Below are positions 2,271 through 22,332 of a stretch of 47,349 nucleotides of DNA, in pieces. Location: positions 34,305 through 81,653 of the forward strand of contig CAZTOS010000002.1 of the NCBI GenBank assembly GCA_964615185.1, in the 5' to 3' direction. Position 1 is the stretch's first letter. Each line of letters begins with the position of its first letter. Under the pieces are notes generated by a model that ran no database searches, had not been told where the DNA came from, and saw nothing but the letters and a program-made list of their open reading frames with translations. The position numbers and the translations under genes are program-made. This DNA comes from an uncultured Thermococci archaeon. GTDB lineage: Archaea; Methanobacteriota_B; Thermococci; Thermococcales; Thermococcaceae.

Positions 2271-3158
2271 TCATTTATTGTACAAAAACGATTTAACGAT
2301 TTCGGATATAAGTATAAAAGCCATCCATTCTCCAACTACAATCCAATAAATCTTTAAGGCTCTTCTAATATCTTCCAATGTCGGTTCTTTCCCCTCAAAT
2401 CTATAAACACCTTTTTTCTCAAGCCAAACCCCTAAAACGGCACTCATAGCTGATATTGGCTTATCACTATTTATCTTGAACTTAGCTTTTCTCCAGTATT
2501 CTATGACCTTCCTTGGATTAAAGGGTAAGAATAGCAAAACAGTAATGCGGGCTGGAATGAAATTAAGAAAATCATCCAAACGGGCGGCAAACTTGCCAAA
2601 ATAAAGATAGCGTTCATTTTTGTATCCTATCATGGCATCGAGGGTGTTTACAGCTCTATAAATTAGGGCACCACTTAGGCCAAAGATGAGATAATAGAAC
2701 AGAGGGGCAACTATACTGTCCGTTATATTTTCCGCTAAGCTTTCAATTGCCGCTGAATTTAAATGAGCCCTATCCAGGTTTGATACATCTCTGCTCACAA
2801 TCAACCTCACGTATTTTCTCTGCTCCTCAATATCCTCCTTTATTGTATTTTTCACATGCTGAGCAAGGCTTTTGATAGCAAAAGAGCTCTTTAGGAGGTA
2901 AACACTCAAAGCAAAGCCTATCCATTTAGGTAAAAACTCTGGAAGCCTCGAAAGAGCAAAAGCAAACGCAATCACAAATAGGGAAGCAAAAGTTCCTACA
3001 GCAAAATCTAAAGCTGAGCTCCTCCTTTTGCAACGCCTATCAAAAAAGCCGATTAGCTTACCAAACCACACTGTAGGGTGAAGCAAAACGGAAGGCTCAC
3101 CCAGAGTTAAGTCCCAGATGATGGCGAGTATGAATATCCAGATGTACTCCATGTCCAT
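2271..3158 (-). CDS. cbiB: Adenosylcobinamide-phosphate synthase
   Basis: [53 protein letters not shown]. Confidence 0.92.
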
Positions 3159-3167: not shown

Positions 3168-3184
3168 CTGGATATTTTGTCCTT
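3168..3184. promoter_or_regulatory. Putative cobamide-regulon operator, copy 1 (cbiB promoter)
   Basis: CTGGATATTTTGTCCTT between a TTAAAA element and the cbiB start. Confidence 0.6.
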
Positions 3185-3335
3185 TTAACTTTTGAGTTTC
3201 TTTTGTTGTTCACTCACGAGAGCTTTTTAAGGACGAGCATTTTAAGCTCGCCAACTCTTCCATTTCCTTCCTAAATCTTTCGTTTTCCCCCTCAAGCTCT
3301 GAAGTTCTCTTTGAATCTCAAGCAGAAATGAGGAT

Positions 3336-3812
3336 TTAACCCCTTTCCCAGAATTCCTCCGGGACGAGCTTGATGATGTCCTTCACCGTTCCAAAGTCCT
3401 CGTCGAGAGTGGCGAGCTTGTCGCAGTTGTACTCTAAGGCTGTAGCAAGAATTCGTGCATCATGAGGAAGAAGGGAATAATCGTAAACAAATGTAGCAAC
3501 AGTCAGCCAATCCCTTGAATCTGAAACGATAAGCACATTTTTCACATCAACGAGAGCAAGAATATCGGATATTGTGTTCGACGCACATCTCTTGAATTCT
3601 GCGTCTCTTCTGAGTAGCCTTTTAACTCCCCAAATTGAAGAAACACCGTAATTTTTCTCTGCAATCTTTCGAATTAGGATGTAAAAAAGTTCGTCAATCA
3701 CAGTGTCTGAAGTTAATTTTCCTTCTCCAGAATCTAGTATGTTAACCGCGTACTCTGTAAGTTTGGTCTCTACTAAATAGTTATAAAGAACACTCGAATC
3801 AATGAATATCAC
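3336..3812 (-). CDS. vapC: PIN-domain (VapC) toxin
   Basis: IFIDSSVL, DE, LLPHDARILATA, LATLDEDF acidic tetrad. Confidence 0.88.
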   Translation of the reverse strand: MIFIDSSVLYNYLVETKLTEYAVNILDSGEGKLTSDTVIDELFYILIRKIAEKNYGVSSIWGVKRLLRRDAEFKRCASNTISDILALVDVKNVLIVSDSRDWLTVATFVYDYSLLPHDARILATALEYNCDKLATLDEDFGTVKDIIKLVPEEFWERG

Positions 3813-3982
3813 TGCTCATACACCTCAAGTTTGTATTTTTTAAACTCATTAGTACTCCCTTTTCCGAACATACCGGGATGAATTTCCTTTTTCTTTTCTT
3901 CAATCAGCTTTCTAAATTCAAGGGCTTCTTTAAGCAGGTGAGAGTATAATTTTAATGCTTTCTCATGTGCTATCTCCGACAT
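3809..3982 (-). CDS. Putative VapB-type antitoxin
   Basis: Small charged ORF overlapping the PIN start (GTGA), AGGTGA RBS, C-terminal EVYEQ typical of Thermococcales antitoxins. Confidence 0.65.
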   Translation of the reverse strand: MSEIAHEKALKLYSHLLKEALEFRKLIEEKKKEIHPGMFGKGSTNEFKKYKLEVYEQ

Positions 3983-4103
3983 AAGTATCACCTACATTTT
4001 TAAATTTGAGTTAAACGGATAAAACATTTTCCATCAAGTTCTTTCTCTTCAGAAAAGGAGAACATCTGATTGTGACTAAAAAATTTCAAATTTTCCTTGT
4101 GAA

Positions 4104-5522
4104 TCAGAAGTACATATGTTTTGATATACTTTCTTCTCTCCCTATCAAATCTTCAAGATCAAACACCAGAAAACCCTTCTCCAAAAAATGCTCCTTATCC
4201 TCAACGCTCCTGGCGATAACACCCAACCGGAGGCTTCCGGTAGAAGGCAAAAGTTTGGACTTTTTCTTGAGCTTCCTGAGAACTCTTGAGACATCGATTT
4301 TTCTCAAATCACTCCACTTAACTTCAAACAATGCAATATTCTCCCTATCATACGCAACAACATCTATTTCCTCTCTCTTATGCCACCAGCGGCCAACTCT
4401 CAGAGGTTTAAAGCCCAGATTTATCCGCTTAACGAATTCAAGGGCTGCCCTCTCATACGTTTTTCCAACAAAGGCGGAAAAGTTCCTTTCCAAATCATCG
4501 AGCACTAAATCAAGGTTTCCTTCCTCCAGGTATGTGTAGTTGTGATAGACGAATCGGAACCAGAAGTTGAAGAACTCATCAGCAACTCTGTATGCTACTT
4601 TCCTTGTCTTTCGCGGATCTTCGGTGGCGGGCACTTCTTTCCTCAGGTATTCGTAATGATTGGTCAGTTCACTGAGATACTTGCCTACGGTGAGAAGCTT
4701 AAGCCCGGTCTTGTCGCTTATCTCCTTTGGTGTAACATAACCAAGACTGACAGCCTCCAGTATCGAGAAGTACGAGCGGTAAAATCTGCCAAATTCGAGC
4801 TTGAGAGTATTTAAGCCTTCTTCACGGAGAGGGGCAAACTCATCAAAAAAGAGGTTGTTGAGGGTTTCAGCCACGTTTCCTGTGTAGTATCTCTTCAGAT
4901 AAAGAAGGTACCGAGGCATGCCGCCGAGAGCAGAGTAAAGCTCAACAAAATAATCAGGGGGTACATCAGCAAAGGTATTCACAAAATCATAGGCAGTCCA
5001 GAAGTCAAACGGTCTCAGCTTTATCCACTCATCAACCCTGCCAAAAAGCGGCTCCTTGTTATCCATGAAGATGCGCTTCATCATGCCAACGTATGATCCC
5101 ACCGCAATGAGCATAAGATTGGAATTCCCTTTCATGTCCCACAGCTTTTGAAGGGAAGAGAAGAAAGAGGGCTTAACTGAGCGGAAGTTCTGAAACTCAT
5201 CAAAGACAACGACGAGTTTTCGTTCCTTAGAAAAGTTAAGCAAAAATTCAAAGAGCTCTTCAAGGGATGAAAATTTTGGTTTAACATAGCTCGGAAGGTG
5301 TTCACCGAGAACGGTTTCTACCTCCTTCAAATATTCTTCAATCAGCATTGTTTCATCCTTCTCCCCAACAAAAAAGTAAAGACCAAGCTTACTCCTGAGG
5401 AACTCTCTAACGAGCGCTGTTTTTCCTACTCTTCTGCGCCCATAGATGAGGACGAAAGTTGAACCCGGGTGGGCGTAAATTTTTTCAAGCTTCTCAAGTT
5501 CAGCATTCCTGTTGTAGAACAT
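4104..5522 (-). CDS. Archaeal ATPase (AAA + wHTH + DUF234 PD-(D/E)xK-like domain)
   Basis: MFYNRxxE, YGRRRVGKT, VFDEFQ, GGMPRYL, GRWW..EEIDVV..EVKW. Confidence 0.88.
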   Translation of the reverse strand: MFYNRNAELEKLEKIYAHPGSTFVLIYGRRRVGKTALVREFLRSKLGLYFFVGEKDETMLIEEYLKEVETVLGEHLPSYVKPKFSSLEELFEFLLNFSKERKLVVVFDEFQNFRSVKPSFFSSLQKLWDMKGNSNLMLIAVGSYVGMMKRIFMDNKEPLFGRVDEWIKLRPFDFWTAYDFVNTFADVPPDYFVELYSALGGMPRYLLYLKRYYTGNVAETLNNLFFDEFAPLREEGLNTLKLEFGRFYRSYFSILEAVSLGYVTPKEISDKTGLKLLTVGKYLSELTNHYEYLRKEVPATEDPRKTRKVAYRVADEFFNFWFRFVYHNYTYLEEGNLDLVLDDLERNFSAFVGKTYERAALEFVKRINLGFKPLRVGRWWHKREEIDVVAYDRENIALFEVKWSDLRKIDVSRVLRKLKKKSKLLPSTGSLRLGVIARSVEDKEHFLEKGFLVFDLEDLIGREESISKHMYF

Positions 5523-5543
5523 ATTACCCACCAAGTATATTAC

Positions 5544-6286
5544 TCATTTGGTAATATTTAAGCTTTTCCTTATAACCTCATACTCTCCCAGCATCTCATC
5601 ATTTGGCTCTCTCAAGCCTCTGCGCACATACCAGGCTGGATGTCTCAAATAGACAGCATCAAAGCCAATTCTTTTCAACGCTTTTTCTGCTGTCCTGCCC
5701 AGAGCAAACATTGTTCCTGGTCTTAAAATTTCAAGCTCTTTCCTGAGAAGAGAAAGCTCTCGCTTATCGAATCCCTTGAGCTTATTCTCCAGAGGATTGC
5801 ACTTGACGACGTTGGTGATGTATAAAAAATCGGGGTTTATTCCGAGAGAGAATAGAGCCCTTCTGAGCAGCATTCCAGAAGCATCTCTATAGAAGCATAT
5901 TCCCGCGTATCCACATCCCTTCCTTCCCGGAGCTTCTCCAACTAAAACAACTCTCGAACCAACCCAGCCATTGGCAAAAGGCAAGCCCTCAAACTGCTTA
6001 ACTTTAAGCTGGTACTCGTAATATTCTTTGTGGCAGAACTTGGTGGGATTTTTAAGCAATTCATTGTACAGCTCCACAAGTTTGAATGCTTTTTGCTCAT
6101 CTTTCTCGCTTTTAATTAAAAAGCGCTCTTTTGGATTGTAGATAGTCTTGGCATAAAGCCCATACGTCTTTTCATCCAGAGAGAGCAAATCTCTCCAGGT
6201 TCTCAGAGACAGAGGCATATTTTGAAATTTCTTGGGTTTATGTAAATTTCGCCGACCCTCTTTAAGCTCTCAAACATCAGCAGCAT
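5544..6286 (-). pseudogene. Uracil-DNA glycosylase superfamily protein with an apparent 1-bp frameshift near the 5' end
   Basis: VGEAPG, TNVVKCNP, ALGRTA, HPAW motifs in 5544-6218; upstream ATG 6286 (MLLMFESLKRVGEIYINPRNFKI) is 68 nt away, out of frame, and has a TATA at leaderless spacing; could be a sequencing error. Confidence 0.7.
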
Positions 6287-6287
6287 A

Positions 6288-6304
6288 AAGGATAAAACGT
6301 CCAG
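6288..6304. promoter_or_regulatory. Putative cobamide-regulon operator, copy 2 (divergent UDG-like / Zn-ribbon-DUF71-cobZ promoter)
   Basis: AAGGATAAAACGTCCAG; reverse complement CTGGACGTTTTATCCTT matches copy 1 at 14 of 17 positions; next to TTTATAA at 6309-6315. Confidence 0.6.
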
Positions 6305-6328
6305 CGTGTTTATAATTTTGGTGGTGTT

Positions 6329-6577
6329 ATGGAGACGAAAAAGTGTCCCCTCTGTGGAGGAACAATGATAAAAGGGAAGAACCCACAGGAAGGATACGCG
6401 GTGTATTTCTGGAAAGCTCCTTGGAAAAAAGGACTAAAGGCGGCATTCACCGGCACAGTCAAGGCATATCCATGGCTTTGCATTGATTGTGGCGCAATAA
6501 TACCATACGTTGATGAGGCAGAGCTTCAGAAGATAAGGGAGGAATATGAGCAGGCAAAGTTGGAGGGAAGCTTTTGA
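6329..6577 (+). CDS. Small zinc-ribbon protein
   Basis: CPLCGG...CIDCG; GGTGGTG RBS; overlaps the next start codon. Confidence 0.8.
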   Translation: METKKCPLCGGTMIKGKNPQEGYAVYFWKAPWKKGLKAAFTGTVKAYPWLCIDCGAIIPYVDEAELQKIREEYEQAKLEGSF

Positions 6578-7215
6578 GAGGTATAGCTTTCTTTTCAGGC
6601 GGCAAAGATGGGCTTTATGCAACATATCTATCTGAAAAACAAGGAATTGAAATTCCCTACCTTTTGGCACTGAAAACTACAATCGGGACTTCACCGCACT
6701 ATGAAAACTTAAGCGAGCTGAAAAAGCTTGCAGATGCAATGAATAAGGAGCTCTTAACCTTTGATATGGCCAAAGGAAGTGAAGCCCTATCTGAGTTTAT
6801 AGCATCCCTTGGTGTTGATTACATAATTGCTGGGGATGTCCTACTTGAAGACCATCTAAAGTGGGTTGAGTGGTTCGCTGAGAAGAGCGGAACAAAAGCT
6901 TTAGAGCCGCTATGGGGAAGGAACACATTTGAGCTTGCGAAGGATATGATAAACGCTGGCTTCGAGTATTCAATAATTGCCGTGAATAAGGAAAAGCTTT
7001 CCAAAGAGTGGCTTGGCTACACATTTCGCTCAATTAGAGATTTGGAGCAATTTTTGAAGGCAAATCCTAATGTTGACCCTGTCGGAGAATTTGCAGAGTT
7101 CCACACGGTGGTTTTGAAATGTCCGCTATTTGAGAAAAGCTTTGAGCTAAAGCCAGCGGAAGTTAAGGAGAGTGAAAGATATTGGTGGCTGAGGTTCAGG
7201 CTGGTGAGAGCATGA
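6574..7215 (+). CDS. DUF71/Dph6-paralog PP-loop ATP pyrophosphatase associated with B12 salvage
   Basis: FFSGGKDG PP-loop, AGDV, EPLWG, DPVGEFAEFHT. Confidence 0.82.
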   Translation: MRGIAFFSGGKDGLYATYLSEKQGIEIPYLLALKTTIGTSPHYENLSELKKLADAMNKELLTFDMAKGSEALSEFIASLGVDYIIAGDVLLEDHLKWVEWFAEKSGTKALEPLWGRNTFELAKDMINAGFEYSIIAVNKEKLSKEWLGYTFRSIRDLEQFLKANPNVDPVGEFAEFHTVVLKCPLFEKSFELKPAEVKESERYWWLRFRLVRA

Positions 7216-7661
7216 AAGCTGAAGAAATTCTTCGAAGACTTGAACAAAAAGGTATAACCCTCGAAAAGATGCTCGACACAGCTATGGAGCTTTACATTGG
7301 TGATGATGCTGAAAAAATTAGAGAGAAGCTTAGGTCTATGATGCTCCATTATCTCACTGACATCAACGTGCAATCACTATTAATAGCCGCCATTCTGCTT
7401 GAGGAGAACTTTAAAGTCGAAGGGGATCCGGTTAATTTGATTGCAGATGAGTTGATTGGCATCAACCTTGCAGAATACATCGGCGGAAAGATGGCGCTCT
7501 TCAACTTCTTTTACTATGACACCAAAAAGCCGGGAATCTTAAAAGAGCTACCTCCATTTTTGGATGACGCAATTGGGGGATTCATAGCCGGTTGCATGAC
7601 AAAACTCTTCGAGACTACCTCAGCCGGGAGTCCCAGCGAAGAAAGAGAAACAGAAATATGA
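7212..7661 (+). CDS. cobZ: Alpha-ribazole phosphatase (archaeal CobZ)
   Basis: DINVQSLL, DPVNLIADELIG, YIGGKMALFNFFYYDTKKPGIL, PFLDDAIGG; GGTGAG RBS and ATGA coupling. Confidence 0.85.
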   Translation: MKAEEILRRLEQKGITLEKMLDTAMELYIGDDAEKIREKLRSMMLHYLTDINVQSLLIAAILLEENFKVEGDPVNLIADELIGINLAEYIGGKMALFNFFYYDTKKPGILKELPPFLDDAIGGFIAGCMTKLFETTSAGSPSEERETEI

Positions 7662-7779
7662 AGAGAAGCGTAATGTAATAACTGACCATAAAAGGCAAAA
7701 TTCCAGCTAAGCCGAGTGTGTATACGAAGGCGAGAACCAACACAATGACAAGCAAGATTCGATAGTGTTCCTTCTTCAT
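7615..7779 (-). CDS. 54-aa two-TM membrane protein (not in the ORF track)
   Basis: MKKEHYRILLVIVLVLAFVYTLGLAGILPFMVSYYITLLFIFLFLFLRWDSRLR*; its TATA lies on the far side of the IS. Confidence 0.7.
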   Translation of the reverse strand: MKKEHYRILLVIVLVLAFVYTLGLAGILPFMVSYYITLLFIFLFLFLRWDSRLR

Positions 7780-7793
7780 TGCACAAATAGTTG

Positions 7794-8567
7794 GATACTG
7801 TCAGGATAACTTTGGCATCACCTTCTGAAGCCATTCAGTAACATCACCAGGAGGAGCATTAAACCGAGAATGACGCCGAGCAAAATTATACCAGAAAGCA
7901 AACAGAAAAACAAACCTGTGAATCCTCTTCCAGTCCCTACTCCTGAAATTATTCCAGAAACGCTTTGTTCTTTCTTTAACAGTCCTGAACCAGCGCTCAA
8001 CACTGTTCCTCAGCCCGAAAGTCACATGCAAGTAATCCAGCCCCAGACTGTTAAACGCTGATTTATACCAAGGCCCGCCATCAGCCAGAAAAATTGGCCG
8101 CCCCTCACAGGAATTCAAAACAATCAGGAGGAAATCTCTGGCAATCCACCAGTTCCTGGTTGTTGTAATCCAGACTGCAAGCTGCTTTCAACGTCAATGG
8201 CAGCCCAAAGGTATCTTTTCTTCCCGTTGATTTTTATCACTGTCTCGTCAACTGCAATAAAATTCCTGTGTTTCTTTACTGCGAGAGTTTTCGGCGTGTA
8301 AACGGATTCTGCGAGTTTTTGAAGTGTCTCCCAGACTGTTGTGTGGCTGATTTCCAAGATTTCTGCGACTTGCCTGTAACTGAGGCCTCTCAAGTATAAT
8401 TCTACTGCCCTGATTTTCTTTTCTGGTGGGATTTTGTTGCGGCGAAAAGGTTTTAAGGCTGAAAACAGCAAGTAAATAATGATTTCAGCCTTCATGGTTC
8501 CCCTTTCTTTTCTGAAGAGGCATCAGAAACTTAAGCCTAACGTCCTACTACTTATCCTGACAGTATC
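7794..8567 (-). mobile_element. IS6-family insertion sequence (774 bp)
   Basis: Perfect 16-bp terminal IRs GATACTGTCAGGATAA (7794-7809 / 8552-8567); 8-bp target duplication AATAGTTG (7786-7793 / 8568-8575). Confidence 0.95.
7801..8495 (-). pseudogene. IS6 DDE transposase, frameshifted
   Basis: HTH and IAVDETVIKING..LWAAIDVES in one frame; LAVWITTTRNWW..LADGGPWY..RNSVERWFRTVKER in another; shift near 8180-8185. Confidence 0.9.
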
Positions 8568-8636
8568 AATAGTTGGAGGAAATTTTTTATAAAACTTGCT
8601 TGAGATCATGCAACTTTTTAAGCAAAAGATGACAAC

Positions 8637-9335
8637 CTAATCTTCCCTAAACTCAATAGCAAAAATCAACATTAAGCATAAAATCAACCAAAACCCCAAT
8701 GATGTGATAGACAAACCCGCATATTGTGGATGCCTGTATGCCATTAGGTGTGATGCGCTGACGGTGGGCACCAATAGGAGAACATAGCGCAATTTCTCGG
8801 GTGCGAGAGTTAGGGGGTAATAAACCGGAAGAAAAACCGTTAGCAGGGTTGTTAAAACCGTTGACAACCTCATAACCGTAAGTGGTTCCCTAATTTTGAC
8901 GCCCATGTACATTCCGAGAGTTGTGCTCCATATCCACAAAGAAATCACACTTAACATTACATATTTTATATGAGAAAACCCAAGCTTTGCAAGGAGAATG
9001 AGGATGAGTATTATCAAATATGGCAGGGCTGGTAAGCTCATACCTATCGATATTCCGAGCATCTTCTCTGCTGAATTTCCGGGTAGGGTCATTATTATAT
9101 CATAAAATTTTGAACGAACTTTCATTCCCACTAATTCTATTGGAAGGTCTGCCATTCCAACCCCGACAATGAAGCTAACAACAGCTCCCGCAATAGCTGA
9201 TGAAAGAAATCTGCCTTCGCTAATCACATAAACGATGAAGATGAATGAGATCGGCTGTATGGCAAAACTTAAGATTGAGCTTTTGCTCTTCATTAGTGCA
9301 TTTTTATGATACTCAATTATTGCCCAAATGCTCAC
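8637..9335 (-). CDS. ABC-2 type exporter permease
   Basis: About 6 TM segments, PVYYP motif, start overlaps the ABC ATPase stop. Confidence 0.85.
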   Translation of the reverse strand: MSIWAIIEYHKNALMKSKSSILSFAIQPISFIFIVYVISEGRFLSSAIAGAVVSFIVGVGMADLPIELVGMKVRSKFYDIIMTLPGNSAEKMLGISIGMSLPALPYLIILILILLAKLGFSHIKYVMLSVISLWIWSTTLGMYMGVKIREPLTVMRLSTVLTTLLTVFLPVYYPLTLAPEKLRYVLLLVPTVSASHLMAYRHPQYAGLSITSLGFWLILCLMLIFAIEFRED

Positions 9336-10219
9336 CTTAGATCCCCCACGAGAAAGATATCCTCTATAGTTAGTTCTTCCCTTTTAAAAGGAAGCCCAAT
9401 CTCCTCTAATTTATTAATTACATCTCTTTCTTCCAATTTTGATTTAACATAAACAAGAGTGTTTTTCCCTGCTCTTTTTGTTATGTACCCATCCTTGATA
9501 AACTCTCCAAAGACAACTATCTTTGAGTGGAACTGGGAAAGATATTGCCGCCCAATTTTTTCTGGCTCACCAAAGGCAACTACTCTCCCTTTTTTAAGGA
9601 GAAGTACCTTGTCGCATATAGTAGAAATTTCATTTAAATAGTGGCTTGTTATCACTATAGTGGAATTTTTGCTTTTTTCTCTTAGTATTTCCCATAATTT
9701 CAGGCGATTTTCAACATCAAGCCCCACTGTAGGTTCATCAAGATAATAAATGTTAACATCAGCTGATAAAATCATAGCAAGCAGAGTTTTCCTAACCATA
9801 CCACCTGAAAGCGTTGACATTATCCTATTGGCATAATCAATGTTAAACTCCTCTATAGCCTGTTCAGCTCGAACCTTGGCTTCTTCTTTTGAAAACCCTC
9901 TCATCCTAAGGTAATGGTAAATATACTCGAAAGGTGTGAGGGTATAAAAATGAGCCTTTGCCTCTTGGGGTAAGAGTGCAAAGAGGTTTTTGATGTCACT
10001 TTTGCAGGAAGAAGGATTAATTTCACGGCCGTATAGAAATACCCTGCCACTATCCGGTTTAAGCAGGCAACTAAGAATTCGTACTAAAGTTGTTTTTCCT
10101 GCACCATTCGGTCCAATAATTCCAAGAATGCTCCCTTCTTGAACTGAAAAAGTTAAAGAATCAAGAGCTTTGGTTTTTCCGTAGCTCTTAGTGAGCTCTT
10201 CAACTGATATTGCCTCCAT
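9332..10219 (-). CDS. ABC exporter ATP-binding subunit (DrrA-like)
   Basis: GPNGAGKTT, LSGG, LDEPTVGLD, TSHYL, TIEDIFL. Confidence 0.93.
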   Translation of the reverse strand: MEAISVEELTKSYGKTKALDSLTFSVQEGSILGIIGPNGAGKTTLVRILSCLLKPDSGRVFLYGREINPSSCKSDIKNLFALLPQEAKAHFYTLTPFEYIYHYLRMRGFSKEEAKVRAEQAIEEFNIDYANRIMSTLSGGMVRKTLLAMILSADVNIYYLDEPTVGLDVENRLKLWEILREKSKNSTIVITSHYLNEISTICDKVLLLKKGRVVAFGEPEKIGRQYLSQFHSKIVVFGEFIKDGYITKRAGKNTLVYVKSKLEERDVINKLEEIGLPFKREELTIEDIFLVGDLR

Positions 10220-11612
10220 TGTTCTCCCTCAACTTGGAGGTGTATAATTGGTTTAATGGTGAATCTGGTATATCTCTCGTGCAGTACAGTTCCCGAGGTA
10301 TGGCTTTGCAGAACGTGTTGCAGTATCCTTTCTTATAAAGAATACATTGCCTGCACTCAGGATCAACTAGCTTGAATTTATCCTCTTCAGGATTATCAAT
10401 GCCAATTCTGAAGTATTCTGCAAGAGGGGATGCCAATATCTCCTTTAAAGATTTTTGAAAAATATTGCCTAATTTAAACCTTTCTTCCCTAAGAAAGACG
10501 CAGGGGTACACATCTCCATTGGTGTGTATTTGTATTTGAAAATTAACTGCACCGCATCTGGCAGTTGGTTTTGTAGGGGGTGGATCAAGAGGAGTCACGC
10601 CTGCCAAAGACTTCAACACAGTTACATTATTTGCCTGTTTTGATCCTTGAATTATTAAATGGTATGCCTCCACTAGTTCGTTAGGTGAGAGCCCTTCCGA
10701 TTTTATGAACTTTCCTCTACCAATAGGAATTAATGCTCCATAAACCCAGCTATCTGCTCCCAATGAATCAACGAGTTTAATGATATCAGGTAATTCATGT
10801 AGGTTTCTTTTACCTATGGTAGTGCCAACAACAATCATTGTCCTATGGTGGTTTTTGTCCCTAGCAAGGTTTTTGATTGTCCAGATTACTTTATCGTAAG
10901 TCCCATATCCACGATAAAATTCATGAGTTTCTCGCGTTGCACCGTCCAATGCAATCTGTATTTCGTCAACATAATTCTTAACAACAGATAATAATTTTTG
11001 ATTTTTATACAGAGGAGTTCCATTAGTGGCAAGTATTACATAGAATCCTCGATCTTGAGCTTCTTTTAATATTCTGTCAATCTCAGGATGGAGAAGGGGT
11101 TCTCCTCCAGTAATCCATAAAATTGGAATTTCAAGAGTTTCAAGTTCATTGAATACATGTAAAACCTGCTCAAAACTCATGTACAGATTTACGTGAGGTC
11201 CAGAGTAGGCATAACAGTAATTGCAGGTCAAATTACAGTGGGTTGTAATTTCTACTGCTGCTAAATGAGGAGCAGAGTAAGAGTATGGGTGTGCTTGGGG
11301 GTATGGAGAAAGGAATTCTGTAGTAAATCCCAGCAATTTGCTTAGGCGTTCATATAGTATGGCTTCGGCATTTTCTCGGCTCATTCCAAAATTATTTTGT
11401 ATCATTGAAACAATTTGTTCATAAGGTAGGTGCAACTTAGCAAGTTCAAGCAGTGCAATAGTTCCTAGATCTGTGTAGACTTCAAAGCCTTTTGTATCCT
11501 TTTTGCTACTAATCTTATGAAGTATCAACCCACGCCCATCCTCTTTTCTCCAGTAAAAAACCCTTGAGTCAACAAGCTCCTGAAGTTTAAGATACATATC
11601 TCTAACTTCCAT
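10200..11612 (-). CDS. Radical SAM/SPASM peptide maturase with N-terminal RRE (PqqD-like) domain
   Basis: CNLTCNYC, TGGEPLLH, SPASM C-x13-GDVYPC...CRQC..C..FC..C; about 100-aa N-terminal beta3-alpha3 extension; GGTGAGGGAG RBS before ATG 11612. Confidence 0.88.
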   Translation of the reverse strand: MEVRDMYLKLQELVDSRVFYWRKEDGRGLILHKISSKKDTKGFEVYTDLGTIALLELAKLHLPYEQIVSMIQNNFGMSRENAEAILYERLSKLLGFTTEFLSPYPQAHPYSYSAPHLAAVEITTHCNLTCNYCYAYSGPHVNLYMSFEQVLHVFNELETLEIPILWITGGEPLLHPEIDRILKEAQDRGFYVILATNGTPLYKNQKLLSVVKNYVDEIQIALDGATRETHEFYRGYGTYDKVIWTIKNLARDKNHHRTMIVVGTTIGKRNLHELPDIIKLVDSLGADSWVYGALIPIGRGKFIKSEGLSPNELVEAYHLIIQGSKQANNVTVLKSLAGVTPLDPPPTKPTARCGAVNFQIQIHTNGDVYPCVFLREERFKLGNIFQKSLKEILASPLAEYFRIGIDNPEEDKFKLVDPECRQCILYKKGYCNTFCKAIPRELYCTRDIPDSPLNQLYTSKLRENNGGNIS

Positions 11613-11661
11613 TTTTACTCCCTCACCAGACTCATACAAAAATAGCTTAGAAAAATAAAAG

Positions 11662-11808
11662 TCAAAATCCATAAATTTGCCATGCTCTTGAGTTGCACTG
11701 TCTACCAGCACATAATGGAGGAATTTGGGAGTAATTGAATTCTGGTTTAGTCTCAACTATATTTCTAATCAGTTCTAAAATCTCTACTTCTTGTTTAGCG
11801 TCGATCAT
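11662..11808 (-). CDS. Putative RiPP precursor peptide (48 aa)
   Basis: MIDAKQEVEILELIRNIVETKPEFNYSQIPPLCAGRQCNSRAWQIYGF*; GGTGGTTGAT before the ATG, TTTATAAA about 30 nt upstream, T-tracts after the stop; first gene of the rSAM-ABC operon. Confidence 0.72.
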   Translation of the reverse strand: MIDAKQEVEILELIRNIVETKPEFNYSQIPPLCAGRQCNSRAWQIYGF

Positions 11809-11835
11809 ATCAACCACCATTAGTATTTTTTTAGG

Positions 11836-11852
11836 ATTTATAAATTTTTTGA
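11836..11852 (-). promoter_or_regulatory. BRE/TATA promoter of the precursor-rSAM-ABC operon
   Basis: CAAAAAATTTATAAA on the minus strand, about 30 nt upstream of ATG 11808. Confidence 0.65.
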
Positions 11853-11934
11853 TCCTTACCATGAACTTAAACCTATCACTCTACAGCTTAGGAGTACCCA
11901 AAGTGAAGCGGAGAGCTTTTAAGGCTTTTCAACG

Positions 11935-11951
11935 TTGGATTAATTAGCCGG
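11935..11951. promoter_or_regulatory. Putative cobamide-regulon operator, copy 3 (cobS promoter)
   Basis: TTGGATTAATTAGCCGG downstream of TTTTAAG (11917-11923), abutting the RBS. Confidence 0.5.
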
Positions 11952-11959
11952 GTGGTTCA

Positions 11960-12655
11960 ATGAGAAACCTCATACCCTTCATGACAAGAATCCCATTACA
12001 TGGAGACTTTGAAAAAGCAAGGCAGGAAATTTGGGCATTTCCCATGCTGGCAGTCATCACCTCTGCTTTATCTACAATTGCCCTTTATTTCAACATTCCT
12101 CTGAAAAATGTGCTTGCCCTTCTGCTCCTTTATTTCACCATAGGTCTACTCCACCTTGACGGATTAGCGGACTGGGCTGATGGAATAATGGTCAAAGGCG
12201 ACCGTGAAAGGAAGATCAAGGCAATGAAAGACTTGAACACCGGCATAGCGGGAATTTTTGCTGTCGTAATGGTTCTATTCATCCAAGTCTACTCTTTGAG
12301 CTACGCCCCGTTCTATGCCCTTTTTCTGGCAGAGCTTAACTCGAAGTATGCGATGGTTCTTGCACTGGCAACAAAAAAGCCTCTCGGAAAAGCATTGGGA
12401 GCCTACTTTATGGAGACCATGAACAGAAAGCAGCTTTTTATTGGAAGTTTAATTTACACAGCATTGCTTCTTTCGCTGGTAGCTTATGACCAAAAAGCAG
12501 TGTTCTCAGTTTTGGGTCTTTTAATTGGGGCTTACATCATAAAGCTCAGCCTGGATAATTTTGGAGGGATTAACGGCGACTGCATTGGAGCAACAGCTGA
12601 AATAACAAGGACCGGAACACTTTTGATCTTGGCTTTCGTTTGGTGGTATCTATGA
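11960..12655 (+). CDS. cobS: Adenosylcobinamide-GDP ribazoletransferase (cobalamin synthase)
   Basis: [35 protein letters not shown]. Confidence 0.95.
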
Positions 12656-13227
12656 TAATCATCTTAGCAGGTGGAAAATCTACAAGAATGGGAAAGGAAA
12701 AGCCTGTCCTCAAGATAGCCAATAAACCCATGCTTCTCTGGGTTTATGAGCAGGCCTCAAAGATAGATGACGTTTTAGTCGCAGTGAGCAGAAATACTCC
12801 AAAAACTAAGGAGTTCTGCATTAAAGAGGGAATTCCTTTTGTTGAAACTTCTGGAAAAGGTTACGTGCATGACATTCAAGAGCTTTTACGAGAATTTGGA
12901 CCGTTTATAAGCATCTCTGCAGATGTTCCTTTTGTGAAAGCAAGTGATTTCTGGCTCATCAAGAAAGCCTTTGATGGAAAGACGAGCTTAACAGGGGTTC
13001 TTTCCCTAAGCATTGTCCCAAAAGACCTCAATCCTGTAGTTTATAAGGGGTATGCAATCGTCGGGCTAAATGCCGTGGCTGAAGGAGGGGAAGAGTTCTT
13101 CGAGCTTACAAACCCGCTACTGGCTTTGAATGTGAACACCCCAGAAGAGCTGGAAAGAGCAGAACGGATAGCATCACTGTTTTTCTCCTTCAAAGAGAGG
13201 TATCAACAGCAGAACAGCTATCGCTGA
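12652..13227 (+). CDS. cobY: Adenosylcobinamide-phosphate guanylyltransferase
   Basis: [28 protein letters not shown]; coupled to cobS. Confidence 0.88.
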
Positions 13228-13980
13228 CACAATCATTTGGATTATAAGCTGCGGATTTGGCAGTGAGAGGCTTTTGGGGAATACATAAAGGCTAACCATA
13301 TATTCCCCCGGAGGAATGCTTTCTGGATTGAACCCCTCATCACAGGAGCTGATAGTGGCATTGTACCTCGAAAGTGCATCTTTAACGAGATACCTCTTAT
13401 CCTGAGGTATTTTTTCCAATAGTCTCTTCGTCTTTTCTATAACCTCCAACTCCTCCTTGGTGAGCTGTTTATGGCAGTTGTATCCATATGAATCAAGACC
13501 GCATTCTTTAGAGAGCAGAAACCTTTGAGGGTTCCCATCCACGAACATCACATGAAGCCACATGCCCTTTAACGAATGTTCAATTCCAATAACATTTGAT
13601 GAATTGACTGTAGCCAGTAGATTTTCTATTTCATAGGGTTTGCTAACATAGCATGAGAGTCCAACGCTTCCATTCAGGCTTTTATAAGATGCCCAATTAA
13701 AGGATTTTTCAGGCATCTCTGTTATGTAGTCAATGGTTTTCTCGTGCATGTTCAGAGCCTTTTCGTACATGGCGAATTGATACGCCGGAACCGTCAGGAA
13801 AAGAAAGGATATAAGGAACACCGCCCTTATTTTTCTGTCCCTCTCAAGGAGTGCAAGGAGGATCAAGGCAAATTCAGCGAGCAGGATAACCGTCAGGTCT
13901 GAGGATAAATCCGGATATTCCGTGCCGTGTGGCTGTATGAGCTCGATTTCATAAAATTCAAGCCCTTTATGGGTGAGCAT
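13174..13980 (-). CDS. Hypothetical membrane protein (possibly the C-terminal part of a frameshifted gene)
   Basis: Two N-terminal TMs, a soluble domain and a C-terminal TM; overlaps the upstream ORF just after an A7 run. Confidence 0.6.
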   Translation of the reverse strand: MLTHKGLEFYEIELIQPHGTEYPDLSSDLTVILLAEFALILLALLERDRKIRAVFLISFLFLTVPAYQFAMYEKALNMHEKTIDYITEMPEKSFNWASYKSLNGSVGLSCYVSKPYEIENLLATVNSSNVIGIEHSLKGMWLHVMFVDGNPQRFLLSKECGLDSYGYNCHKQLTKEELEVIEKTKRLLEKIPQDKRYLVKDALSRYNATISSCDEGFNPESIPPGEYMVSLYVFPKSLSLPNPQLIIQMIVSAIAVLLLIPLFEGEKQ

Positions 13981-14485
13981 GAATTTTTTTCGCCCGTTCC
14001 ATTCTCCCCATATCCTCGCTCCGCGCTCTAAGTCTGTCCAGCAGGTAGTCTCTGATGGGCTCTGGAAAGCTGTAATTTGTTAGAAGAAAGTTTAAATCGC
14101 CATACTCTTTCTCAAGCCTTTGAGGAGTCCAGTAGTCACCTGCCGGGAGTTGGGTTACATCAGAATAATCGGCAAGCTCTAATATCTTTGTGAGAATCTC
14201 CCTCTTCATGAGAACGTCCGCATGCGTGCCATCGGAGGTTATCACAACTGAATTGTTCCGTATAAATGAGGCAAATTTTTCGGCATTTTCTCTGTTCTCA
14301 AAGAGAACCAGAACCCTTGATGCGTTTGTGAAATATCTGACATAGAAAAGGCTGGGGGTTTCATTTGGAAAGGTTAGGGGAGTTATATATTCTGGAGAAG
14401 GTTGTAGTTCGGAATGCACATGAAAAGCTGTAAGCGAAAGGGCAATCATGAGGATTACGGTTGGTATAACCGCAGCTTTCTTCAT
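13967..14485 (-). CDS. Hypothetical secreted/membrane protein (possibly the N-terminal part of a frameshifted gene)
   Basis: MKK + hydrophobic signal peptide; TTTTAAG about 25 nt upstream. Confidence 0.6.
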   Translation of the reverse strand: MKKAAVIPTVILMIALSLTAFHVHSELQPSPEYITPLTFPNETPSLFYVRYFTNASRVLVLFENRENAEKFASFIRNNSVVITSDGTHADVLMKREILTKILELADYSDVTQLPAGDYWTPQRLEKEYGDLNFLLTNYSFPEPIRDYLLDRLRARSEDMGRMERAKKIHAHP

Positions 14486-14565
14486 GTTTGCATGTTAAAT
14501 GTTTGAGCTTAAAAATATTTCCCACTCTGATTAGTGCTGTCTTTCCATTGATGAAAGGTTCCACA

Positions 14566-15912
14566 TCACCGCAAGCCGGATTTTCTTCTCCTCGCCACTC
14601 TGACCTCGCTTGTCCCTGCTGAAACAAGCTCATACAATATAGCCCTTTCCTTACCGGGAGCGGGTCTCAAAATCCTACCGAGCCTCTGAATGAACTCCCT
14701 TGATGAACCTGTCCCGCTTATTATAACCCCAACGCTGGCATCAGGAACATCTATACCTTCATCAAGAACTTGACTGCTGACTATCGCTTTGTATTCACCG
14801 TCTCTGAATTTTTTCAATATCTCCCTTCTTTCGGCTTTATCGGTTTTGTGAGTTATAGCCGGGATTAGGAATTTCTTTGATATTGCATAGACTAAATCGT
14901 TGTGCCTTGTAAAGATAATTATCTTCTCCCCTCTGTGCTTTTCAAGAATCATTCTCAGCTTTTCAATCTTTTTCTTTGAGTTGAACGCTATTCTTCTTGC
15001 CTGTTCTAAAGCTCTTAAAGCCTTGAATGCATTCTCATCGCTTCCCGTTCTCATGACTATCCTTTGAAAATCCTCAAGGCTTCTGAACCTTATCTTCCTG
15101 CTTTCGATGTAACTCCTGAATACCTCATAGTGTCTTTTGTAAAGCTCTTTTTCCTCCTTGCTCAGGGGAACGTGAATCTTTACAACTTCATATGGGGCTA
15201 AAAATTTGCCCACAAGCTCCTCTGGACTTTTTTCATATATTATTCCCCCGATAAGATCTGGCAGAAGTTCATGAAGTTCATCAGCTCTTTCGGGAGAAGC
15301 AGTTAAGCCAAGACGATAAGGAGCGGCACTCATCTGGGCTATGTTCCTGTAAGCCTCGCTTGGCAGATGATGACACTCGTCAAAAATCAGAAGAAAGAAC
15401 TTGTCTCCCAAGAGCTCGGCGTTTATGTACGCAGAATCGTAGGTTGTGACAGTTATCGGCTTAAGCTCCTTCTTCTTTCCAGAAAACTCTCCAACTTCAC
15501 CAAAGATTGAAAGCCTGTCCTTCCACTGTTCAAGCAGAGCCAACGTAGGGACAACAACAAGTGTTGATACGGAAAGCCTCCTGATAATCTCCAAGGCGAT
15601 TATGGTTTTTCCAGCTCCAGTTGGCAGAACTACAACACCTCTCTTAAACCTCAAAAACCTTTCAACGGCTTCCTTTTGGTAGTCCCTCAACTCAAAATCA
15701 AACTCCACATCGTAAAAGGGGGAGGGAATTGCATTATCAAATACATGATCCTCGAACTCAATGCCTTCCTGCTCTAAGAATTCCACTATGTCCCTGTATT
15801 TATAAGCCAGAGCTCTGTAACTTTTACTCCTCTCATCCCATTTTGCAAATGGCACATGCACGTTGCCCTTTATAACAATCGTTCCTCTGTGGTAAAAGAG
15901 CCTTACTTTCAT
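14566..15912 (-). CDS. xpb: XPB/Rad25 SF2 helicase
   Basis: [41 protein letters not shown]. Confidence 0.92.
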
Positions 15913-15963
15913 AATATTCAGTTCATCAGCAACTCATTTAAACTTTCCTTTCCAACTTTTTCC

Positions 15964-17097
15964 ATGCTTCCGAAGGAACTGCTTGACGCACGCAAGGTAA
16001 AAGGAAAGATTTATCTAAAATTTGCAAGTGAGGAGCACTTGAAATTAGCTAAAGCGATAATAGCAACATTTAAGTCTAACATTGGAAAGAGCTATGGGCA
16101 ACTTCTGGAAAAAATAAGCCATATGGAGAAGGCGAGCAACTACAAAAAGGTCAGAGGATTTGCAAGGATAATTGAAAGACAGAGTGAATTTGAGATTCTA
16201 ACAAGGCTCAACCCCGTTGAAGTCAGAAGATTCCTATTCGAAAGGGGCTATGTTACAAATGATTTTGAGAGGCTTAGAGTTCTGCAGGAGGCGTCGGAGC
16301 ACTTTGGTGTTTCCACTTCCGAAATAGAGAATGCAATATTTGCCGATAGGGATGAGGAGAGAATCCTCGTGAAGATTCCCGAAATAACACCAGAGGAGCT
16401 TATACGGCAGTATAATCTATCACTTCTGCAGACGCTCATGTTTTCCTCCTTAAGAATTAACTTTAGAGTCTCATCTAACCATCAAAGGATTTTCAGGAAG
16501 ATAAAGCACCTCGGGCTGATGTATCAGATTCAGGACGAGCTCGTTGAAATCACAGGACCGGCTTCTATACTCAAGCTAACCCGAAAGTATGGCGTTTCCA
16601 TGGCGAAGCTCATTCCCGAAATTGTGAAAGCTGAGGATTGGTTTATAAGAGCAGAGATACTTGACGAGCACTCAAAGCGAATCCACATCTTTGAGCTCTC
16701 AAGCTCCGATGGGGTGATGCTACCGGCAATTGAGGAGCGCATTGAATATGATTCTTCACTCGAGAGACAGTTTGCGGCAAAGATAAAGTTCCTCCTTGGA
16801 GCTGAGGTCATCAGAGAGCCCGGCATATTGAAAGCTGGGGATTATGCATACATTCCGGATTTTCTTGTGAGGAAAAATGGCAAAGAGGTTTACGTTGAAA
16901 TTGCCGGCTTCTGGACCGAGGAATATTTGAAAACAAAGATGGAAAAGCTTTCCCAACTTAAAGTACCAATGCTTGTCATAGCAAATGATGAACTGTTTGC
17001 GGGCAAGCTCAAGAGAATTCATAACGTCATGCTGATGAAAAAGGGCAAGATTCCATACAAAGACATTATGAGGAAGCTTAAGGAGATGCTCAGATAA
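15964..17097 (+). CDS. bax1: Bax1 nuclease (DUF790)
   Basis: [37 protein letters not shown]...VEIAGFWT; adjacent to xpb. Confidence 0.9.
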
Positions 17098-18538
17098 GAC
17101 TCTGCAGGATATAGTCAACATCAATATTCTCTGCAACGATTTTTGAAAATCTCTCGATTTCCTCTTCAATACTCCACTTCTGCACTGTTATTGGTTCAAG
17201 ACCTTTCTCTAAGCGAAGCATGTTCAAAAACTGCTCCGTAAATTCAAAGTTGTGGAATATTCCATGAAGGTAAGTGCCAAAAACTCTTTCACCAACTGCC
17301 CCTTCTGGTTCAAACGCCTTAGTTCCATTTATTTCACGTATTATTGAGAATGGCTTTTTTGATACAGAGCGCCCCATCCTAATCTCATAACCTTCAATGT
17401 TTAAGCCCCTTACCGGCTCCCATAGGATTTCGGCCTTCAAATGGTTTGTTCTCTTGGTCTCAGCAAACACCGTTTTAGCTTTCAGCAAACCAATGCCCCT
17501 AATCTCACCACGCTTTGATTCTATGTTGTCAATGATCTTTTCCCCTAACATCTGAAAACCGCCGCAGATTCCTACAACGAATGCCCCCTCTCTATGTGCC
17601 TGGATTATTGAATCTTCGATGCCGTTTTCCCTCATCCAAAATAAATCCTCCACCGTGTTTTTGCTTCCGGGAATTATTATTAAATCACCCTTGATCTCCT
17701 CTGCTTTTGTGACATAATCAACGCCATTTGCCCAGTGAAGCGGCTCAAAATCTGTGAAGTTGCTTATGTGCGGAAGCTTAACAATCTGGATATGCAAATC
17801 ACCTTTGACTTTTGGAAATTCAACGAGAGAGTCTTCCTCTGGAATTTTGTGCTCCATATGGGGTATCACGCCCAAAACTTTCTTGCCGTATTTTTTCTCA
17901 AGATAGTCAAAACCTGGTTTTAAAAGGGAGGCATCTCCTCTAAACTTGTTGAATACAAAGCCCATAACCAGTTCTTGCTCTTCTTCACTTAAAAGCTCCA
18001 TTGTGCCAACTATAGAGGCAAAACTACCGCCTCGATCTATGTCCGTAACGAGAATGACTTTGGCATTTGCATGTTTTGCAACCCGCATATTTGCAATATC
18101 ATAATCCTTAAGGTTTATCTCCACCGGAGAGCCAGCACCTTCAATCACGACTATGTCATGCTTTTCCAAAAGCTCATCTAAAATCTGCATGGCTTTTCTA
18201 AAAAGCTCTTCCTTCTTTGAGAGCATATATTCACGAGCAGAGACACTTCCAATGGGTTTGCCCATGAAGACAACTTGACTTCTCATGTTTCCTTCTGGCT
18301 TGAGCAAAATTGGGTTAAACTTTACTGAGGGCTTCTTCCTGCATGCTAAAGCCTGTAAATACTGTGCCCTGCTGATCTCTCCGCCTTCTATACTTGGAGC
18401 AGAGTTTAGGCTCATGTTTTGGCTTTTAAATGGAACCACATCATAGCCAAGATTTGAGAAAATTCTGCACAGAGCTAATGCTAAGAGGGATTTTCCAGCT
18501 CCAGATGAAGTACCCTGAATCATGAGGGCTTTTCCCAT
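17090..18538 (-). CDS. cbiP: Cobyric acid synthase
   Basis: [65 protein letters not shown]. Confidence 0.95.
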
Positions 18539-18611
18539 TCGAGTCTCCTCCAAATGTCGTAATGAAACGGAGGCATCACAATACTCACAAAAATTAAGAA
18601 GAAAATAAAAA

Positions 18612-19670
18612 TCATCCAGTAGCTTCAGCTTTACAAGCAAACGGCATGAATTGAATATTGAAGGATTCTGGGTGGAGATACTTAGCCAATGCTTCAATAC
18701 CATAGACAATTCTTGGACCAGGACGTGAGAGCATATTGTCCTCTTCTTGAGTTAAAACATAAACCCTTCCATTTTTCACTGCATTTATTTTCTCTAATGG
18801 TGTTCCACAGATTGTGTTTGGATCAGCATAACCACCCATTGAAGACATTATTATAACATCTGGATTTCTTGCGAGTATATCCTCTATGCTGACCTCCTTC
18901 CAACCTTGCACGTCATGGAATGTATTCTCTCCTCCAGCTAAGCTTATTGCCTCATCCATAAAAGTTCCACTTCCAGCAGTCCAGATACCGGATTGACCGG
19001 GGCTTAAGTAGATGAACACCTTAACTTTGGGCCTGTCTTTTACTCTGTTCTGAACCTCCGATACCTTTGCTTTCATGAATTCAACAACTGCTTTTGCTTC
19101 ACTTTCCCTGTTTACAATTTTTCCAATGAGCTCAATTTTCCTATATATGTCATCAATGCTCGTTGGGTTTACTATGACGACTGGAGCAATCTCTTCAAGT
19201 TTATCGAGGATTGACAAACTCATGCTGTCTGCCAAGATTAAGTCGGGCTTGAGGGATGCTATTATCTCTATGTTGGCATACTTTCCATAGCCTCCAACCT
19301 TTGTAATTTTCTCAACCTGTGGTGGATAATCTGCCCACTGAGTTACTCCGACTAACTTATCCCCGGCACCTATGAAAAACAGTGTTTCAGTAATGCTTGG
19401 TGCCAGCGATACAATTCTCTGGGGTTCTTTTTCGATTGTGACTTTTCGTCCGTTGTCATCGGTTATGGTGAGGGGATACTTCTTTGGAGTTACAGTTATT
19501 GTAACGGTCTCAGTTACAGTCTTTGCCGCAGTCTCAGTCTTTGTATAGGTCTCGGTTTTTGTGACTTCTTTTGTTACTGTCGAGGCAGTAGGTGTTTGCT
19601 GTCCAATACAGCCTGCTATTATCACCCCAAACATCAAAATTGTCAAAATCAGGGCAACTTTTCTTTTCAT
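18612..19670 (-). CDS. btuF: Cobalamin/corrinoid ABC transporter substrate-binding lipoprotein
   Basis: Lipobox IAGC, Thr-rich linker, [20 protein letters not shown]; cob cluster context. Confidence 0.8.
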
Positions 19671-19682
19671 AACCTTCACCTT

Positions 19683-19699
19683 TTGGATTATTTGTCCAA
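19683..19699. promoter_or_regulatory. Putative cobamide-regulon operator, copy 4 (btuF-cbiP side)
   Basis: TTGGA-TTATTTG-TCCAA with perfect 5-bp arms. Confidence 0.65.
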
Positions 19700-19737
19700 C
19701 CTTCAGCAAAAATATGAACGAAGGGTATATAAGTTTG

Positions 19738-19754
19738 TTGGATAAAATTGCCAG
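19738..19754. promoter_or_regulatory. Putative cobamide-regulon operator, copy 5 (cobT side)
   Basis: TTGGATAAAATTGCCAG just downstream of TATATAA (19726-19732). Confidence 0.55.
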
Positions 19755-20767: not shown

Positions 20768-21024
20768 TCTGTTGATTTTTCTCTTAGTTTCATGAAAAAT
20801 AAAATGAAACAAAACCATCCAAAAAGAATCTTAAGCTCCTTCATAAAAACCTTGAGATTGACTATGAGGTGACCAATGATAAGGATGTTCATAATGAGAG
20901 CGACTTTTGTTCTAAGTGCAAAGATTTGAGCCTTTATCATTCCGAGGAACATTCCGTTTTTTGTGGTCCATAGCATGCCCATTGCAGTGAACAACGCTAA
21001 GAGAAACATTTTTACACTTCCCAT
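20764..21024 (-). CDS. Small hydrophobic protein, possibly a decayed DUF4405-like membrane protein
   Basis: Hydrophobic segments with a [15 protein letters not shown] pattern; fills the cobT-cbiZ gap. Confidence 0.35.
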
Positions 21025-21100
21025 GCCTCATAAACACTTAAAAGTATTCCGAAACTTTTGCATCGTCAAGCTCTTAAACGAAAAAAGAGTATTAAAATCC

Positions 21101-22314: not shown

Positions 22315-22332
22315 AATAACCACCAGTTATTA
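22314..22332. promoter_or_regulatory. Putative autoregulatory operator of the HTH-CBS gene
   Basis: Perfect palindrome TAATAAC-CACCA-GTTATTA over the RBS/start. Confidence 0.55.

Follow-up and report, generated by a model that had tools for sequence, protein, structure and literature searches.

A 17-bp palindrome at B12-gene promoters of the Thermococcaceae, with the DUF4443 protein PH0730 as candidate regulator

The DNA considered here (below, the window) is a stretch of 47,349 nucleotides (nt) from an uncultured archaeon of the Thermococcaceae, contig C2 of a 2.26-Mb genome in 138 contigs (labelled G000) whose CobT is 87–97% identical to the CobT of named Thermococcus records. It carries a cobamide salvage cluster at 655–21688 (cobD, cbiB, DUF71, cobZ, cobS, cobY, cbiP, btuF, cobT and cbiZ; Table 1), in which a 17-bp palindrome recurs at five promoters. 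This palindrome is almost certainly the operator of a B12 regulon throughout the family. It marks each class of B12 uptake, salvage and B12-using promoter examined, and a candidate for the protein that reads it, encoded elsewhere in the genome, is described below.

An earlier note on this DNA had reported the five 17-mers, each next to a TATA box and upstream of a start codon; all are present, flanked in every case by a TATA-like box on one side and a start codon on the other. The site at 6288 had been ascribed jointly to a UDG-like gene and to DUF71-cobZ. Because it follows TATA 6260 and precedes ATG 6329, it belongs to the operon formed by an 82-aa open reading frame (ORF), DUF71 and cobZ, and the UDG-like gene drops out. 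It is also the weakest of the five (10.1 bits), but 8 of 12 DUF71 loci keep a site at this position. The loose consensus from which the note started is by itself at chance level, with 210 matches to TGGA-N7-TCCA in the window at two mismatches and 239 expected. Specificity was therefore tested with matrices, and in this refined form the motif does stand above chance: scored by a matrix from 43 cobT and nrdD sites outside the host genus, four of the five window sites reach at least 12 bits, against a mean of 0.7 matches in 30 Markov-shuffled windows.

Table 1. Palindrome sites and genes of the cobamide salvage cluster in the window
Feature	Position	Strand	Remarks
cobD-like threonine-phosphate decarboxylase/aminotransferase	655..1632	-	PRK08354 over cut-off; TIGR01140 E 5e-55, under cut-off
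cbiB adenosylcobinamide-phosphate synthase	2271..3158	-	TIGR00380
cbiB-(mntA-hepT)-cobD operator	3168..3184		9 nt before ATG 3158 (minus strand); abuts weak TATA-like box
UDG-superfamily gene	5544..6218	-	divergent from 6288 site
82-aa ORF-DUF71-cobZ operator	6288..6304		20 nt after TATA 6260, 24 nt before ATG 6329; weakest
82-aa cysteine-pair ORF, first gene of DUF71-cobZ operon	6329..6577	+	in 9/20 cob loci
DUF71 / PAB0415-family ATP pyrophosphatase	6574..7215	+	NF052346
cobZ alpha-ribazole phosphatase	7182..7661	+	TIGR03161
cobS-cobY operator	11935..11951		11 nt after TATA 11916, 8 nt before ATG 11960
cobS and cobY	11960..13227	+	TIGR00317; cobY models under cut-off; cobS = 11960-12655
cbiP/cobQ cobyric acid synthase	17090..18530	-	PRK00784, TIGR00313; approximate start
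btuF-like substrate-binding protein	18612..19670	-	
btuF-cbiP operator	19683..19699		26 nt after shared TATA box, 12 nt before ATG 19670 (minus strand)
Bidirectional TATA box common to btuF-cbiP and cobT	19726..19733		between both operators
cobT operator	19738..19754		4 nt after TATA box, 11 nt before ATG 19766
cobT, archaeal type	19766..20767	+	TIGR00303
cbiZ adenosylcobinamide amidohydrolase	20963..21688	+	PF01955; without own site

Across the host genome, the top five matches outside the window to a matrix made from the five window sites precede nrdD, mcmB, btuC, nrdJ and mcmA, with meaB-mce and cobA among the weaker ones. The other-genera matrix ranks nrdD, mcmB, btuF, btuC, nrdJ, cobA, mcmA and meaB first; its matches in the 2.26 Mb are B12-gene sites in 7 of 7 cases at 18 bits, 9 of 11 at 16 and 11 of 24 at 13, and its best ten among 2392 upstream regions are eight B12 genes and two divergent partners of these. 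Such a genome-wide scan had been called for in the earlier note, with matches expected at btuCD, where a site was indeed found. The refined consensus from 74 sites is HTGGAYAWWWTRTCCAD, with only the GG and CC positions invariant, an invariance that is partly built in as the sites were chosen by matrix. Among Thermococcales genomes at least 89% complete, 82 of 82 contain the exact core, TGGAYAWWWWRTCCA, while a reversed control gave four matches in three genomes; at 80% completeness, the core is present in all 87 Thermococcaceae. These counts are partly circular, the pattern having been derived from some of the genomes counted. A search for a motif-free Thermococcaceae genome gave none, and genomes without cobT carry the motif too.

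Sites at individual genes were counted at a threshold of 11 bits. They precede all of the 30 best loci for cobT (81 genomes matched), nrdD (47) and mcmA (61), the cobT and nrdD loci having been used in training and, of the mcmA sites, only that of the host genome. Elsewhere they were found at 15 of 21 nrdJ, 10 of 14 cbiB, 6 of 13 cobS and 11 of 11 btuF loci; the cbiB and cobS loci without one are mostly behind another cluster gene, as are all seven of the cobS ones, and where cobT stands alone (G034 and G047) it has no site. Loci fetched because they hold a match gave 3/3 for btuC, 5/5 each for mcmB and meaB, 4/5 for the acyl-CoA synthetase alpha subunit, 2/2 for cobA and 1/2 for mmdA. The operator role proposed in the earlier note is borne out: both a lack of conservation at orthologous promoters and an equal frequency at unrelated ones were looked for, and the motif is conserved at the former and rare at the latter. 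That the palindrome is a product of chance, a core promoter element or an RNA hairpin has a negligible probability. The chance-level frequency of the loose consensus in the window speaks for it, but the motif is confined to B12 genes among the upstream regions scanned, survives gene rearrangements, lies outside the transcript at mcmA and has no Rfam match. In the window and six regulon loci (102,540 bases) the only Rfam matches are small nucleolar RNAs and one tRNA; no cobalamin riboswitch (RF00174 and kin) was found there, in agreement with the note's view that these salvage genes do without one.

The sites fall on either side of the TATA box depending on the gene. They follow the box at cobT (by 3–5 nt in 26/30), cobS (11 nt in 6/6), btuF (19–26 nt in 11/11), nrdD (0–22 nt in 30/30) and meaB (4–6 nt in 3/5), as well as at btuC and cbiB, with an overall gap of 0–26 nt; in 29 of 30 cobT loci, 10–11 nt separate the site from the start. 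They precede it at mcmA (33 nt in 29/30), mcmB (30–31 nt in 5/5), the single mmdA site (29 nt) and nrdJ (80–83 nt in 12/15), where the site is found at 168–181 nt in 15 of 21 loci although the gene upstream varies. In five of five loci, meaB-mce (G000:C9:11617) lies directly behind mcmB with its own promoter, so that adjoining genes belong to opposite position classes. The nrdJ upstream regions (G000:C58; L021, L135–L154) contain further words at fixed places, TGTCA/CGTCA at about -118 and GCTGAT/ACTGAT at about -57 (15/21 each) and a TGACAG-like word at -15/-16 (20/21), perhaps marking a second regulator.

According to the available part of PMC4158304, Tgr and TrmBL1 repress from sites after the B recognition element (BRE)/TATA box and activate from sites before it. 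Since the palindrome follows the box at one class of genes and precedes it at an opposed class, the factor would be a repressor-activator and not a pure repressor; by this analogy it probably acts both ways. The repressor of the earlier note fits the sites after the box at salvage and uptake genes, and is too narrow as a full description; likewise its salvage targets stand, and the regulon adds nrdDG, mcmA, mcmB and nrdJ. By the Tgr/TrmBL1 rule, a factor bound after the box would block polymerase recruitment, and one bound before it would help TBP and TFB to load. With B12 present, uptake, salvage and the B12-independent NrdDG would then be shut and methylmalonyl-CoA mutase and the B12-dependent NrdJ raised; with B12 absent, the reverse. 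Shutting the former and raising the latter would be sensible only for a factor that binds when B12 is plentiful. A factor that only represses, with the upstream sites at mcmA, mcmB and nrdJ serving a divergent gene or blocking an upstream activator, is distinctly improbable. Both mcm sites in the host genome do lie between divergent genes, 17 of 30 nrdD promoters have a second, upstream site, and at nrdJ other conserved words stand between site and TATA box; but 29 of 30 mcmA loci keep the 33-nt gap although the neighbour gene differs among the loci read, and repressing B12-dependent enzymes together with B12 uptake makes little sense.

The site was also compared between the Thermococcaceae (f1) and other families of the same class (f2–f6). 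In f2 the core precedes cobT, and tandem pairs 14 bp apart precede btuF and btuF-btuC. Both f2 genomes also have tandem sites before a short ORF without a Pfam match, downstream of a beta-CASP gene (L165, L170; G002:C11, G001:C45). In f5 the core precedes genes for a corrinoid methyltransferase and RACo, as well as cbiP-cobD and cobC-cobT-cobS. In f2 and f5 it follows the box at synthesis genes and is right before the box at methyltransferases. The f4 exact-core matches examined are all intragenic, and f4 corrinoid-protein promoters carry a 19-bp form, TGGAYGG-N5-CCRTCCA, equivalent to two TGG-N9-CCA cores offset by 4 bp. With at most one mismatch it occurs 3–7 times per genome in 15 of 15 f4 genomes and 3–9 times in four of four from f6; in Thermococcaceae its 0–5 matches are at chance level, and none of 199 sites there is a twin core with a 4-bp offset. 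In f3, where just two of five genomes have B12-binding domains, a single exact-core match and three 19-mer matches are all inside reading frames.

The earlier note held that the regulator could not be identified from the window, and the candidates within it did fail. The present candidate lies outside, at G000:C34:9591-10190 directly behind mcmA, and encodes a protein of 199 aa in which a PH0730-like N domain (PF22167, 112 bits) and DUF4443 (PF14544, 97 bits) score over cut-off. It is the orthologue of PH0730 (PDB 2p8t; E 4e-70, 57–58% identity, Z 29.7), with a winged-helix fold like the DNA-binding domains of CggR and MarR (model pLDDT 93), and R29, E40 and R44 are invariant across 24 DUF4443 sequences; R111, D112, P135 and D161 are invariant residues too. 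The gene is single-copy in 87 of 87 f1 genomes, 2/2 of f2, 6/6 of f5, 12/15 of f4 and 2/4 of f6, and in none of the five of f3; in G107 it is cut by a contig end. An Archaeoglobus and a DHVE2 record showed no site at cobT, and no DUF4443 was found in their genomes, which are of unstated completeness. In f4, with its 19-bp site form, the recognition helix reads EASIRS for EGSVRT.

The gene's surroundings also connect it with the site. Seven of 28 Thermococcaceae loci have it directly behind mcmA; in G003 DUF4443 and a divergent mcmB share a 23-bit site, and a site lies over the DUF4443 start codon in G121 and, by half-sites, in G122. In five f4 loci DUF4443 is last in a DUF4430 operon with twin sites, opposite an ECF transporter, and the same layout fits by coordinates in G107, G111, G113, G114, G115 and G116. 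DUF4443 homologues form 932 clusters at 50% identity (E up to 1e-10). For distant ones, a single distant DUF4443 served as query and the best 80 of the 455 metagenome loci were taken. An ECF S component is near the gene in 43 of these, more often than any other neighbour, and btuF, cobZ, cbiB and cobB are found in other loci. TGGA-N7-TCCA occurs 60 times in these loci, against 5–24 for other spacers, and for 27 of 77 DUF4443 genes the 200 nt upstream contain a core, many of these being 4-bp doublets, compared with 1 of 77 control windows. From these sequence comparisons DUF4443 is predicted, with good confidence, to read the palindrome. Each of two winged-helix heads would contact one half-site, TGG or CCA, the two being 9 bp apart; a homodimer prediction (score 0.06, against a mark of 0.42) counts neither way. 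In its available text PMC6316755 gives PH0730 merely as a winged-helix family, and no paper linking DUF4443 or PH0730 to B12 was found in the open-access literature.

What the candidate senses is less sure. The C-terminal DUF4443 domain would bind the signal, and direct binding of a corrinoid is predicted by a narrow preference over other signals. Fold searches gave no B12-binding fold, with the whole protein as query, lists filled by winged helices and the C-domain not searched alone. Outside its family the C-domain's best fold match is the aspartyl-tRNA synthetase insertion domain (Z 11.8, root-mean-square deviation 3.0, 111 aligned). Four DUF4443 proteins are fusions, three with DUF2111 and one with a fumarase C-terminal domain (P0198, P0233, P0241, P0256). 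One weak test turned up no longer fused forms, and the DUF2111 and fumarase fusions gave no pointer to a ligand. There is a modest chance that DUF4443 reads the site and responds to something else: cobalt, the lower-ligand nucleotide alpha-ribazole phosphate, a mutase-pathway acyl-CoA, or a partner protein carrying B12, for example the small mutase subunit. The 100-residue C-terminal domain is without a known B12-binding fold or motif, and sites precede cobalt-transport genes (cbiM and a NicO-type gene), the acyl-CoA synthetase alpha subunit (4/5) and a carboxyltransferase subunit (1/2). A corrinoid signal is favoured by the pairing of B12-independent and B12-dependent reductases in opposite site positions and by the commonest regulon members being corrinoid binders or importers (btuF, DUF4430, ECF S components); against cobalt, the alignments have no invariant His or Cys metal ligand.

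The reading to which we lean, on balance, is that the palindrome at B12 promoters would be bound by DUF4443/PH0730 when a corrinoid is plentiful. A number of points weigh against it, starting with the training-set overlap and the match-selected loci mentioned above. The genomes are related, so that the counts amount to about five independent gene arrangements. The TATA boxes were called with a simple matrix and not from mapped start sites, the available part of the start-site tables of PMC4247193 holding nothing usable by gene name. Six of 21 nrdJ promoters have no site, and 80 nt is far for direct TFB contact. The DUF4443 gene beside mcmA has its own TATA-like box, and the seven loci of this kind are from one genus; the other 21 of 28 Thermococcaceae loci are among housekeeping genes (pyrF etc.), with neither a B12 neighbour nor a strong site. 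G127 (91% complete) has a 19-bp site before btuF and no DUF4443 match, and G128, G106 and G118 (84–87% complete) are also without one. The candidates profiled across the class were DUF4443 and one other. The C-terminal domain matches no B12-binding family, the DUF4443 alignment lacks a DxHxxG motif, and the resemblance to aspartyl-tRNA synthetase is silent on ligand.

Some of these points bear equally on whether another transcription factor reads the site, with DUF4443 merely a frequent member or neighbour of B12 loci. The 21 loci without a link and G127, with motif and no match, are in its favour, as is a list of 67 helix-turn-helix proteins in the host genome, which missed DUF4443 and most of which were not profiled. 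It is nevertheless improbable: DUF4443 has a DNA-binding fold, and five distinct arrangements link it to the site or to target genes, whereas the helix-turn-helix proteins common to the host and an f5 genome (G124) are general ones (Lrp, DtxR-type, RbkR, BirA etc.), none of which is beside B12 genes in 3-kb loci.

Several individual candidates were rejected. In the window, the helix-turn-helix–CBS gene beside cbiZ (21754–22323) is next to the cluster in just 3 of 20 loci, all one genus, and RbkR (25889–26584) has a different motif. Elsewhere, an Lrp-type protein (C69:5594) is absent from the motif-bearing f5 and present in f3 and f6; two ArsR genes lie by the acyl-CoA synthetase (C99), which in G004 has a site without them; and none of the host genome's three PF02310 matches above cut-off appears in the list of 67 proteins, so that no helix-turn-helix fused to a B12-binding domain was found there.

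The acyl-CoA synthetase alpha subunit lies at G000:C99:1608-4708 with the two ArsR genes and DUF211; its site is strong in four other genomes and weak in G000 (8.9 bits). Together with the mutase, epimerase and decarboxylase, it suggests a B12-switched route from succinyl-CoA to propionyl-CoA. A DUF512 radical-SAM-like gene (G000:C84:5429), with a 16.7-bit site right before its TATA box, is a possible further member of the regulon. The start of a 334-aa helix-turn-helix and NMT1-like protein is found on two contigs (G000:C1:12164-13168, C27:22988-23992) with a nearby motif match likewise doubled, likely an assembly duplication.

The cob cluster itself is interrupted by insertions at 1629–2274, 7801–8495, 8637–11756 and 13174–17097. 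Their kinds include mntA-hepT between cbiB and cobD, IS6 remnants, a radical SAM/SPASM and ABC cassette (present too in loci L083 and L007) and xpb-bax1. The UDG-superfamily gene is in the cob cluster of 10 of 20 loci and adjoins cobT in G034 and G047, where the remaining cob genes are outside the stretch fetched around the two; a second paralogue in the host genome has 32% identity. The cluster gene may be a candidate for release of the lower-ligand base. The DUF71-operon promoter (6240–6330) is near-identical to that of G004, from another genus, and unlike same-genus genomes, which have a 390-aa insertion at this place; transfer is possible. H/ACA RNAs in the window are HgcF (22356–22524), HgcE (28914–29044) and HgcG (45574–45851).

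Archaeal control of B12 genes without riboswitches has so far been represented by a listed regulon without a named regulator. DUF4443 is single-copy and its structure is solved (2p8t), exact sites can be named, and the two-way model gives opposite predictions for nrdD and mcmA. If it is right, DUF4443 would be a new kind of B12 sensor, doing for B12 genes what RNA switches do in bacteria, and the site would be a marker by which uncultured archaea could be searched for corrinoid transporters and B12-dependent enzymes. The whole proposal, of DUF4443/PH0730 as an archaeal B12 regulator in several lineages, a light-independent corrinoid sensor acting both ways, toggling both ribonucleotide reductases and using a B12-binding fold not known as such, is tentative, at slightly less than even odds.

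Bacterial cobalamin riboswitches govern the uptake and salvage of B12 together with isoenzymes that do without it, ribonucleotide reductase among them. The target kinds are the same here, but the element is a promoter DNA palindrome, and B12-dependent enzymes are apparently raised too. In CarH/LitR, DNA binding depends on B12, with a Rossmann B12-binding domain and light; DUF4443 has neither PF02310 nor PF02607, and its predicted targets are B12 supply and use. Further counterparts are the dual regulators of Thermococcales, Tgr/TrmBL1 and SurR (the latter named as such in the available part of PMC10746257), whose palindromes repress after the BRE/TATA box and activate before it, as predicted for the site here. 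Motif and targets differ: TGM of Tgr/TrmBL1 is TATCAC-N5-GTGATA in the same portion of PMC4158304, and neither TrmB domain (PF01978, PF11495) was found in the DUF4443 protein at E 0.01. RbkR and ThiR, the latter an archaeal vitamin regulator in the available PMC10746257 text, are protein regulators in place of a bacterial vitamin riboswitch, as proposed here, and have helix-turn-helix domains fused to a pathway enzyme domain; for the DUF4443 domain no match to a B12 enzyme was found, in whole-protein searches with lists filled by the winged helix. RbkR, like the regulon here, has lineage-specific motif variants, that of Thermococci being TnnCA-N4-TGnnA (PMC5397151, as far as available). Of the SorC/CggR family, CggR_N matches the DUF4443 protein at 31.7 bits; the C-domain is DUF4443 and not a sugar-phosphate-binding domain, and the length 199 aa against 345, so that the protein falls outside that family. 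The candidate's orthologue PH0730, from Pyrococcus horikoshii, was itself deposited as a hypothetical protein.

The nearest counterpart is a cobalamin regulon 'CblR', regulator unknown, already listed for Pyrococcus furiosus/Thermococcales in the available part of PMC10746257, citing RegPrecise; the RegPrecise paper contains no CblR passage. Beside it stands the 'CBL-box', reportedly due to Rodionov and colleagues in 2003. CblR has a DNA motif without an assigned regulator in the same organisms and pathway, and its targets, like those here, are cobalamin biosynthesis and salvage genes of Thermococcales. By this likeness of organisms and pathway, and not of motif sequence, the regulon found here is probably the predicted CblR regulon, whose published target list may already include nrdD, nrdJ or mcm. 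New beyond CblR are the named candidate regulator, the split between sites before and after the TATA box, and the double form with a 4-bp offset in other families.

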